Source of the DNA: Escherichia coli O157:H7
GTDB lineage: Bacteria; Pseudomonadota; Gammaproteobacteria; Enterobacterales; Enterobacteriaceae
Strand: one strand, 5' to 3'
Assembly (NCBI RefSeq): GCF_013167455.1
Contig: NZ_CP038328.1
DNA: 64,000 nucleotides
Made by a program: the position numbers. Below, piece after piece: positions 44,501 through 47,500 of the stretch (the stretch's first letter is position 1; every line of letters begins with the position of its first letter).

Positions 44501-47500
44501 GTCCCCAGCGGTCAACAAGGCCGATTGCGATAAAGGTGGCAAGTACGTTGGTCAGGCCGACAATCACTGTCCCCCACATTTGCTCGGTGGTGTTGGTATA
44601 ACCCGCCAGTTCGAAGATTTTCGGCGCGTAATACATGATGACGTTCATCCCGGTGAATTGCTGCATTACCTGTAACAGTACGCCAAGGAACACCGCGCGG
44701 CGGAAGTTGCTATTCTCTTTAAACAGCGCCCAGCCACTCTGTTTAACCTGCAAACTTTCACGGATTTCATCCAGTTCGCGTTTCGCTTCCGCGCTGGTGT
44801 CACGCAGGCGTAGCAGCACGCGTTCGGCATCAACAAAACGGCGTTTGGCGGCAAACCAACGTGGGCTGTCTGGCAGGAAGAAGACACCAATCAGCAGCAA
44901 AATTGCCGGGATGATAATCACACCCAGCATCCAGCGCCATGCACCGGTGTAGCTGAAGGCGGTATCAGAAAGATAAGCACCGAGGATCCCGATTGTGATC
45001 ATTAACTGATACATCGAGATCATACTGCCGCGAATTTTTTCCGGCGCAATTTCAGAGAGGTACAGTGGTGCGGTATAAGAGGCCACACCTACCGCCAGCC
45101 CCAGCAGAACGCGGGAAAGAATCAGTACTTCAACGTTTGGCGCAGCCGCAGAGAACAGCGAACCGGCAACAAACAAAATTGCGCCGATCATCAGGCTCTT
45201 TTTGCGCCCGAGTTTAAAGGAGAGCCAGCCGCTGCCCACCGCACCGACTGCCGCACCGAACATCATGGAGCTTACGACCCATTCTTGCGTGTGCGAAGTA
45301 ATCTGGAATTCATCTGCAATAAACGGCAGTGCGCCAGCAATTACACCGATATCCAGGCCAAAGAGTAATCCCGCCAGAGCGGCAAGGAAGCAGACGAAAA
45401 ACGTCATTGCCTTGTTTGACTGCCCCTGTTTTTTAGCGTCAGGCATGATGCCCTCCAATATGGTTATTTTTTATTGTGAATTAAGATAGGTGAGTACGAC
45501 GTAAAAAGATGTGAAGCAAATCACATCAGTGTAATCGCTTACACTAATATTTATCTTAGTTATGATTTAAGTGCATGAAAATAATTGAGTTATATCATCA
45601 TAGATTAAACGCTGTTATCTGCAATTAAGACTTTACTGAAAAGAAATGTAACAACTGTGAAAACCGAATAATAATATGGAAATATTACAAATCTTTGTCT
45701 GTTGTGGTTGGTGTAATCGGTTTCAGTTGTGATGATAATTTGCGGTGAAACGTGATCAGGAAGAATGATGTTATTGTGCAGGCGGTTTTTTTGCCGGATG
45801 CGGCGTGAACGCCTATCCACCGCGGTGAGGTAAAAGAAAAAGGCCAGCGCGAGGCTGGCCTTTGAAAGCAGGTGAAGAAAGATTACTTCAGACCGGCAGC
45901 ATCGCGCAGCAGCTGCGCTTTGTCGGTTTTTTCCCACGGGAAATGTTCACGACCAAAGTGACCGTATGCTGCGGTTTCTTTGTAGATCGGGTGCAGCAGA
46001 TCCAGCATCTGAATCAGACCGTATGGGCGCAGGTCGAAGAACTCACGTACCAGCAGAGTCAGTTGTTCAGAAGGCACTTTCTCAGTACCGAAAGTTTCTA
46101 CCATGATGGAAGTCGGTTCAGCCACGCCGATTGCGTAGGAAACCTGAATTTCACAACGATCGGCCAGGCCAGCAGCAACGATGTTTTTCGCGACATAACG
46201 TGCTGCGTAGGCTGCGGAACGGTCCACTTTTGATGGATCTTTACCAGAGAATGCACCGCCACCGTGACGCGCCATGCCGCCGTAGGTATCAACGATAATT
46301 TTACGACCAGTCAGACCGCAGTCACCCATCGGGCCACCGATAACAAAACGACCGGTCGGGTTGATGAAGAATTTGGTGGCAGAAGTCAGCCATTCAGCGG
46401 GCAGAATCGGCTTGATGATCTCTTCCATTACCGCTTCTTGCAGCGATTTCTGGTCGATCTCTTCAGAGTGCTGAGTGGAAAGCACGACAGCATCGATACC
46501 AACGATTTTGCCGTCGTCATACTGGAAAGTCACCTGGCTTTTCGCGTCCGGGCGCAGCCACGGCAGAGTGCCGTTTTTACGCACTTCAGCCTGACGCTGT
46601 ACCAGACGGTGTGCATAGGTGATAGGTGCTGGCATCAGCACGTCGGTTTCATTAGTTGCGTAGCCAAACATCAGACCCTGGTCACCCGCGCCCTGTTCCA
46701 GCGGATCGGCACGGTCAACGCCCTGGTTGATGTCAGGAGACTGTTTGCCGATAGCGCTCAGAACTGCACAGGAGTTAGCGTCAAAGCCCATGTCGGAATG
46801 CACATAGCCAATTTCGCGAACGGTGTTACGGGTGATCTCTTCGATGTCTACCCAGGCGCTGGTGGTGATTTCGCCGCCAACTAAAACCATGCCGGTTTTT
46901 ACGTAGGTTTCGCAAGCAACGCGTGCTTTCGGATCCTGTTCGAGGATCGCGTCTAAAACGGCATCAGAGATTTGGTCAGCAATTTTGTCAGGATGCCCTT
47001 CAGAGACGGACTCGGACGTAAAAAGGTGTTTTGCCATATTTAATATCACCTAAAGAGAATTTGGTTAGCTCAAACTGTTGTGTGGATTTTCTGTGGTAGC
47101 GGATCCTACCACGACTCTGCAGGTTAAAAACACTGGCAGTCTGAGTGTTAATCGGTATGGATGGATTAACATCTGGATGGCTATTTTAGGTCAATTCTTC
47201 ACCCGATTTCCACTTTTTTTTGAATCGTGTCTCATTCTGTTAAAAACGTGGCTGGAAATTTTTCCTGACAATGCCGGCATTCTGCGTATTTATCTTTTGC
47301 AATTTTCTGCCATTGTGGGGTATAAAACGCGGCGCGCGGCTTAAATAAAAAGCACACGACGTTTCTTTCGTGTTGCCACTTCCAGCCGGGTTGAAATCAG
47401 AGTTTTGGCTTGTGGGTTCGTCTTAACAGGCGGCCGTGGAGGTGATACGAAATAATGAACCGTTGTCTGCTGCTTAACCTGTCTCACCGTTCTGGTGAAG

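Follow-up and report, generated by a model that had tools for sequence, protein, structure and literature searches.

Promoter architecture of galP

The window analysed in the present study is a 64,000-nucleotide stretch of the Escherichia coli O157:H7 genome (contig NZ_CP038328.1). The features of interest lie in and upstream of galP and are listed below with their window coordinates.

44052..45446, minus strand: galP coding sequence, galactose:H+ symporter, the regulated gene (ORF list; RefSeq annotation of identical E. coli DNA)
45483..45488, minus strand: putative -10 hexamer TATCTT of the galP promoter (geometry and a conserved block, TAcCcT, in 101 species)
45510..45525, no strand assigned: cAMP-CRP site TGTGATTTGCTTCACA, with perfect TGTGA-N6-TCACA half-sites and its centre at 45517.5
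45529..45544, no strand assigned: promoter-proximal GalR/GalS operator of galP, 'OI (galP)' in Qian et al. 2016, BS2; GTGTAAGCGATTACAC in the galP direction; curated position -61.5
45711..45726, no strand assigned: distal GalR/GalS operator of galP, 'OE (galP)', BS1; CTGAAACCGATTACAC in the galP direction and GTGTAATCGGTTTCAG on the plus strand; curated position -243.5

The galP coding sequence begins with the ATG at 45446; the TTG at 45458 reported by the ORF finder is an in-frame upstream artefact. The 601 bases around the proximal site were 100% identical to O157:H7-type genomes, and this region was matched in 5,425 of 5,426 complete E. coli genomes, in which the flanking genes are annotated as metK and galP. 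The proximal operator is located within the metK-galP intergenic region, which is the regulatory region of a galactose transport gene. The initial annotation had proposed a galP operator at this place, and our results confirmed it; the distal operator at 45711..45726 had gone unmentioned, and galP is on the minus strand.

In the galP direction, the distal operator (45726..45711) is followed by 166 bp of AT-rich DNA, the proximal operator (45544..45529), three bases, the CRP site (45525..45510), a T-rich spacer, TATCTT (45488..45483), the Shine-Dalgarno sequence GGAGG, and the ATG. The two operators are 182 bp apart from centre to centre, and the centre of the CRP site is 19 bp promoter-proximal to that of the proximal operator. 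Because the curated position of the operator centre is -61.5, we infer that galP transcription starts at A 45475 +/- 1, which gives a leader of about 29-30 nt. The CRP site is then positioned at about -42.5 or -41.5, an absolute value that leans on the curated -61.5; a start one base further upstream would place the operator at -60.5 and the CRP site at -41.5. A CRP site at -41.5/-42.5 with a repressor site 19 bp further upstream corresponds to an arrangement of the galE P1 type. A plain sigma-70 scan of the galP strand did not find a consensus promoter, as expected of a CRP-dependent promoter.

Several other elements were noted at this locus. Just past the metK stop codon, at 45839..45863 (minus strand), AAAGGCCAGCCTCGCGCTGGCCTTT runs into a stretch of T; this strong intrinsic terminator isolates galP from metK transcription. 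A simple scan also called the CRP site together with a T-run 'terminator-like' (45527..45508, minus strand), a call that the palindromic nature of the CRP site most likely explains. An AT-rich, moderately conserved block, TTATTTTCATGCACTTAAATCATAA, adjoins the proximal operator on its upstream side (about 45560..45584). We considered a NagC site at about 45560..45584 (minus strand) and rejected this candidate: TT-N9-AA is present, but both +/-11 positions carry T instead of C/G. Within the coding sequence, residue 9 of GalP (45420..45422) is Q in the window and R in the E. coli species-representative genome, E. albertii, and other Escherichia. Q9 lies in the cytoplasmic N-terminus and represents a substitution at strain level.

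Sequence of the proximal site and its match to the GalR motif

The 16-mer GTGTAATCGCTTACAC occurs once within the 64-kb window, at 45529..45544. Its reverse complement is GTGTAAGCGATTACAC, and seven of the eight symmetric pairs are complementary, the exception being pair 7/10 (T/C). The near-perfect 16-bp palindrome described in the initial annotation is thus present, but its coordinates, given as 45528-45543, were off by one. The distance of about 85 bp upstream of the galP start was roughly right: the ATG at 45446 (minus strand) is 83 bp from the nearer edge of the site and 90.5 bp from its centre. Sixteen-mers in which at least seven of the eight pairs were complementary numbered 40 in the window and 26 +/- 5 in shuffled sequences. 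Palindromy over 16 bp alone is therefore compatible with chance, and we rested the case on the motif match, position, and conservation of the site.

The proximal site matched the GalR consensus GTGNAANCGNTTNCAC with 0 mismatches, which bears out the earlier suggestion that it fits the pattern of GalR/GalS operators. The GalR consensus is a 16-bp hyphenated dyad and has been quoted as GTGNAANC.GNTTNCAC (PMC5110547); the sequence at 45529..45544 agrees with this form of the dyad without a mismatch as well. Operator positions 3, 5, 9, and 15 were reported to be genetically essential (PMC5110547). GTGTAATCGCTTACAC carries G3, A5, G9, and A15 in both orientations, and all four bases were invariant across the 101 species described below. 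The only other close match to GTGNAANCGNTTNCAC in the 64 kb was GTGTAATCGGTTTCAG at 45711..45726, with one mismatch. When two mismatches were allowed over the whole window, the number of matches was at the level of chance (4 observed and 3.06 expected).

A position weight matrix was constructed from 18 GalR sites inferred by ChIP-chip (PMC5110547, Table 3), with galP left out. Among approximately 128,000 positions scored on both strands, the first rank in the window was taken by 45529..45543 (16.9 bits) and the second by 45711..45725 (15.95 bits), which is located in the same metK-galP intergenic region. The scan that the initial annotation had suggested as a check thus placed the 45529 site first. 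The 18 training sites scored 14.9-22.9 bits, a range that includes the score of the proximal galP site, and the best unrelated match in the window reached 12.8 bits. In 30 shuffled 64-kb windows, the top score had a mean of 14.0 and a maximum of 21.6 bits. Since 16.9 bits is only moderately above the mean of the best shuffled scores, the matrix score alone is suggestive, not decisive; the presence of the two top-scoring sites 182 bp apart before a gene of the gal regulon makes the case for an operator. Like the loose consensus matches at 25934 and 63819, the lower matrix matches at 61406, 35260, and other positions (12.8 bits or less) did not reach the 14 bits typical of the best score in a shuffle, and they were dropped.

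Identity with the curated operators of E. coli K-12

The metK-galP intergenic region aligned with that of K-12 MG1655 at 98% identity. In this alignment, 45529..45544 corresponds base for base to NC_000913.3 3088186..3088201, and 45711..45726 corresponds to MG1655 3088004..3088019. Qian et al. 2016 list 'OI (galP)' as GTGTAATCGCTTACAC and 'OE (galP)' as CTGAAACCGATTACAC at the same MG1655 intervals (PMC5110547). In that study, no GalR ChIP-chip peak in the genome was stronger than the one at the galP operator 3088186..3088201 (115.4, compared with 78.1 for galE; peak at 3088194), and the matrix score of this operator, 25.1, was the highest genome-wide (PMC5110547). Deletion of galR up-regulated three promoters, and the galP promoter was among them (PMC5110547). 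For the GalR/GalS sites of galP, natural positions of -243.5 and -61.5 have been given (PMC9189660); the difference between these values, 182 bp, agrees with the spacing measured in the window. Comparison with curated galP operators had also been put forward at the outset, and the palindrome coincided with 3088186..3088201, the site with the natural position -61.5.

The proximal operators of K-12 galP and of the window are one element in two E. coli strains, with an identical 16 bp, CRP site, distal operator, spacing, and distance to the ATG. Where K-12 has G, 3 bp beyond the operator, the window has A (45547), and the site itself is unchanged. The few further intergenic differences include a 13-bp insertion far upstream. 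This insertion relative to MG1655, at about 45829..45841 (tacctcaccgcgg in the galP direction), sits between the metK terminator and a GC-rich REP-like sequence (…ggataggcgttcacgccgcatccggc…). The shorter form lacking the 13 bp is found in many E. coli genomes, which gave matches of 423-424 bp instead of 436 bp.

Conservation in Enterobacterales

Loci of galP were collected, one genome per species, with a degenerate pattern in galP codons 56-69. Because the pattern lies in the coding sequence, this sampling was blind to the operator and promoter. From the 120 loci returned, 103 (including the window) were retained, in which the GalP N-terminus was recognisable and the upstream DNA extended over 330 bp or more. 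They represent, among others, the genera Escherichia, Salmonella, Citrobacter, Klebsiella, Enterobacter, Kluyvera, Cedecea, Buttiauxella, Serratia, Rahnella, Ewingella, Hafnia, Edwardsiella, and Sodalis.

Of the 103 species, 101 had a GalR-type site of at least 11 bits between 40 and 135 bp upstream of the ATG. Sites at this threshold numbered 266 in the 1.04 Mb of DNA fetched, and about 200 of these were galP operators, giving a background of approximately 0.06 per kb. The best CRP match, with at most two mismatches, was centred exactly 19 bp downstream of the operator centre in 98 of the 101 species. In a gap-free profile of the 101 species anchored on the operator, information peaked on the 16 bp, the CRP half-sites, and the -10 block, and was near zero between them. 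Operator positions 2, 3, 5, 6, 8, 9, 11, 14, and 15 were invariant, and positions 4, 10, 12, and 13 were at least 97% conserved, while position 7 was occupied by all four bases, positions 1 and 16 varied independently, and the flanks were unconserved. Fixed bases without compensatory changes point to a protein recognition site and not to a hairpin. Within E. coli, the 44-bp block of operator and CRP site was 100% identical in 5,278 of 5,426 complete genomes.

A GalR-type operator was not found at two of the 103 loci (L010, Klebsiella sp. BIGb0407; L048, an uncultured Cedecea sp.). Both loci encode a divergent GalP-like protein with the N-terminus MPDNKKKNSSNKRMTFFVCLMAAL, and about 71 bp upstream of the ATG they retain a CRP site. 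This gene may be a paralogue outside GalR control.

Spacing between the two operators

A distal GalR-type site was present in 98 of the 101 species, and in 79 of these it was located 181-185 bp from the proximal operator. Two Serratia species, Entomohabitans, and one Enterobacter sp. had spacings of 172-175 bp, Hafnia and Edwardsiella of 193-194 bp, and Sodalis, Biostraticola, and Acerihabitans of 203-206 bp. Four outlier loci had spacings of 107, 121, 130, and 168 bp, and no spacings fell between the classes. The steps of approximately 10.5 bp, or about one helical turn, suggest that helical phase is kept, as expected of DNA looping. This pattern, which comes from few independent lineages and stands beside the four outlier loci, suggests that the helical phase between the galP operators may be constrained. 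It is conceivable, although we regard it as doubtful, that repression of galP through a phase-sensitive GalR/GalS loop, possibly together with NagC, has been maintained since Enterobacteriaceae, Yersiniaceae, Hafniaceae, and the Sodalis/Biostraticola/Acerihabitans lineage diverged.

Alternative explanations for the palindrome

Near-perfect 16-bp palindromes are common in this DNA (40 in the window versus 26 in shuffles) and loose matches to the consensus with two mismatches are no more frequent than expected (4 versus 3.06), so that a chance palindrome with no function deserves consideration. However, the site at 45529..45544 matches the consensus exactly, ranks first with the matrix, and has the second-ranked site 182 bp away. 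Twelve of its 16 bases were invariant or nearly so across the 101 species while the flanks drifted, and the identical K-12 site is the strongest GalR ChIP signal in the genome (PMC5110547). The probability that the palindrome arose by chance is negligible. An inverted repeat may also act as a hairpin, either as an RNA stem-loop, a terminator of metK read-through, or a cruciform, instead of as a protein site. The RNA of 45519..45554 (minus strand) does fold, with a 12-bp stem, -12.8 kcal/mol, and z = -6.1; however, any palindromic operator would give a stable fold of this kind. Covariation was not found among the 101 species: position 7 was occupied by all four bases while its partner, position 10, was A in 98 of them, and positions 1 and 16 varied independently, with the non-pairing combinations G/A and A/C included. 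The longer stem in E. coli uses flanking columns that are not conserved as pairs, the stem is not followed by a T-run, and no Rfam match was found for it. Moreover, metK has its own strong terminator at 45863..45839, and the operator is upstream of the galP start and, thus, outside galP mRNA. We consider a hairpin function to be extremely improbable.

The remaining alternative concerns the role of a genuine binding site, which might mainly anchor GalR-GalR 'mega-loops' or chiefly be the target of another LacI-family paralogue, and not serve local repression of galP. The operator is among the GalR operators identified in a 3C study of long-distance contacts (PMC5110547), and its central AANCGNTT core is common to LacI-family operators. 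In contrast, the strict 19-bp spacing from the CRP site in 98 of 101 species argues for a local role coupled to the promoter, and the galP promoter was up-regulated in the galR deletion strain (PMC5110547). It is very unlikely that either of these roles is the main one, and participation in mega-loops would be an additional role at most, not an alternative to repression of galP.

Proposed mechanism of repression

We conclude that the palindrome at 45529..45544 is almost certainly the promoter-proximal galP operator for GalR/GalS, which blocks CRP-dependent activation until galactose is available. This assignment is supported by sequence identity with K-12, the matrix score, the arrangement of sites, and conservation across species.

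By the published mechanism, dimeric GalR, a galactose repressor of the LacI family, or the paralogous GalS would occupy the 16-bp dyad, the centre of which is predicted to lie approximately 61 bp upstream of the transcription start, directly beside the cAMP-CRP site needed for firing. In the absence of galactose, bound GalR/GalS would prevent CRP-dependent activation; galactose binding would release the repressor, and the promoter would thereby follow a 'cAMP AND galactose' logic. The second operator, 182 bp upstream, probably cooperates by DNA looping, and NagC adds to the repression. Juxtaposition of the operator and CRP site at 19 bp is expected of a repressor that interferes with the CRP-activated RNA polymerase complex, and would be compatible with both direct contact and a distal loop. 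By the title of Roy et al. 2004, GalR reportedly contacts RNA polymerase directly at galE P1.

Published work provides the background for this mechanism. GalR and GalS share their operators, to which they bind when galactose is absent; galactose allosterically inhibits this binding (PMC3119520). PgalP is inactive without cAMP-CRP, and the binding of GalR inhibits CRP-mediated activation, which results in AND logic (PMC4073488). NagC added about 5-fold repression in a galP-lacZ fusion that had one NagC site (PMC4288165). In one reporter study, GalR and GalS apparently activated the PgalP reporter (PMC9189660), which indicates that the quantitative behaviour is context-dependent.

The galP operator is already known: it has been mapped, verified by ChIP, is textbook-level knowledge, and has been used in synthetic promoter studies. 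The present result has value as a positive control, in which a real operator was correctly recognised from raw sequence alone. The species survey represents a small increment, in that it revealed a rigid coupling of the operator to a CRP site at 19 bp over about 100 species, and it also hints at a helical-phase constraint on the distance of the distal operator.

Comparison with known operators

Among known operators, OE of galETKM resembles the galP site in that one CRP site separates it from the promoter and its centre falls about 60 bp upstream of the start. The CRP site of galE is positioned at -41.5. The two systems also share the repressor, the family of 16-bp dyads, and a second operator for potential looping (PMC5110547), and GalR binds OE of galE at -60.5 (PMC5110547). 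They differ in the placement of the second operator: the galE partner, OI, is intragenic at +53.5 and 114 bp away, whereas both galP operators are upstream and 182 bp apart. Furthermore, galE has two overlapping promoters with opposite regulation, while galP has a single CRP-dependent promoter.

Other operators of the LacI family, such as the PurR box, are likewise palindromic, 16 bp in length, and have a central CG, with the AANCGNTT core in common. GalR also occupies the PurR box at purR (PMC5110547). Unlike these operators, the galP site has outer GTG...CAC arms together with T4 and A13, which is the GalR pattern.
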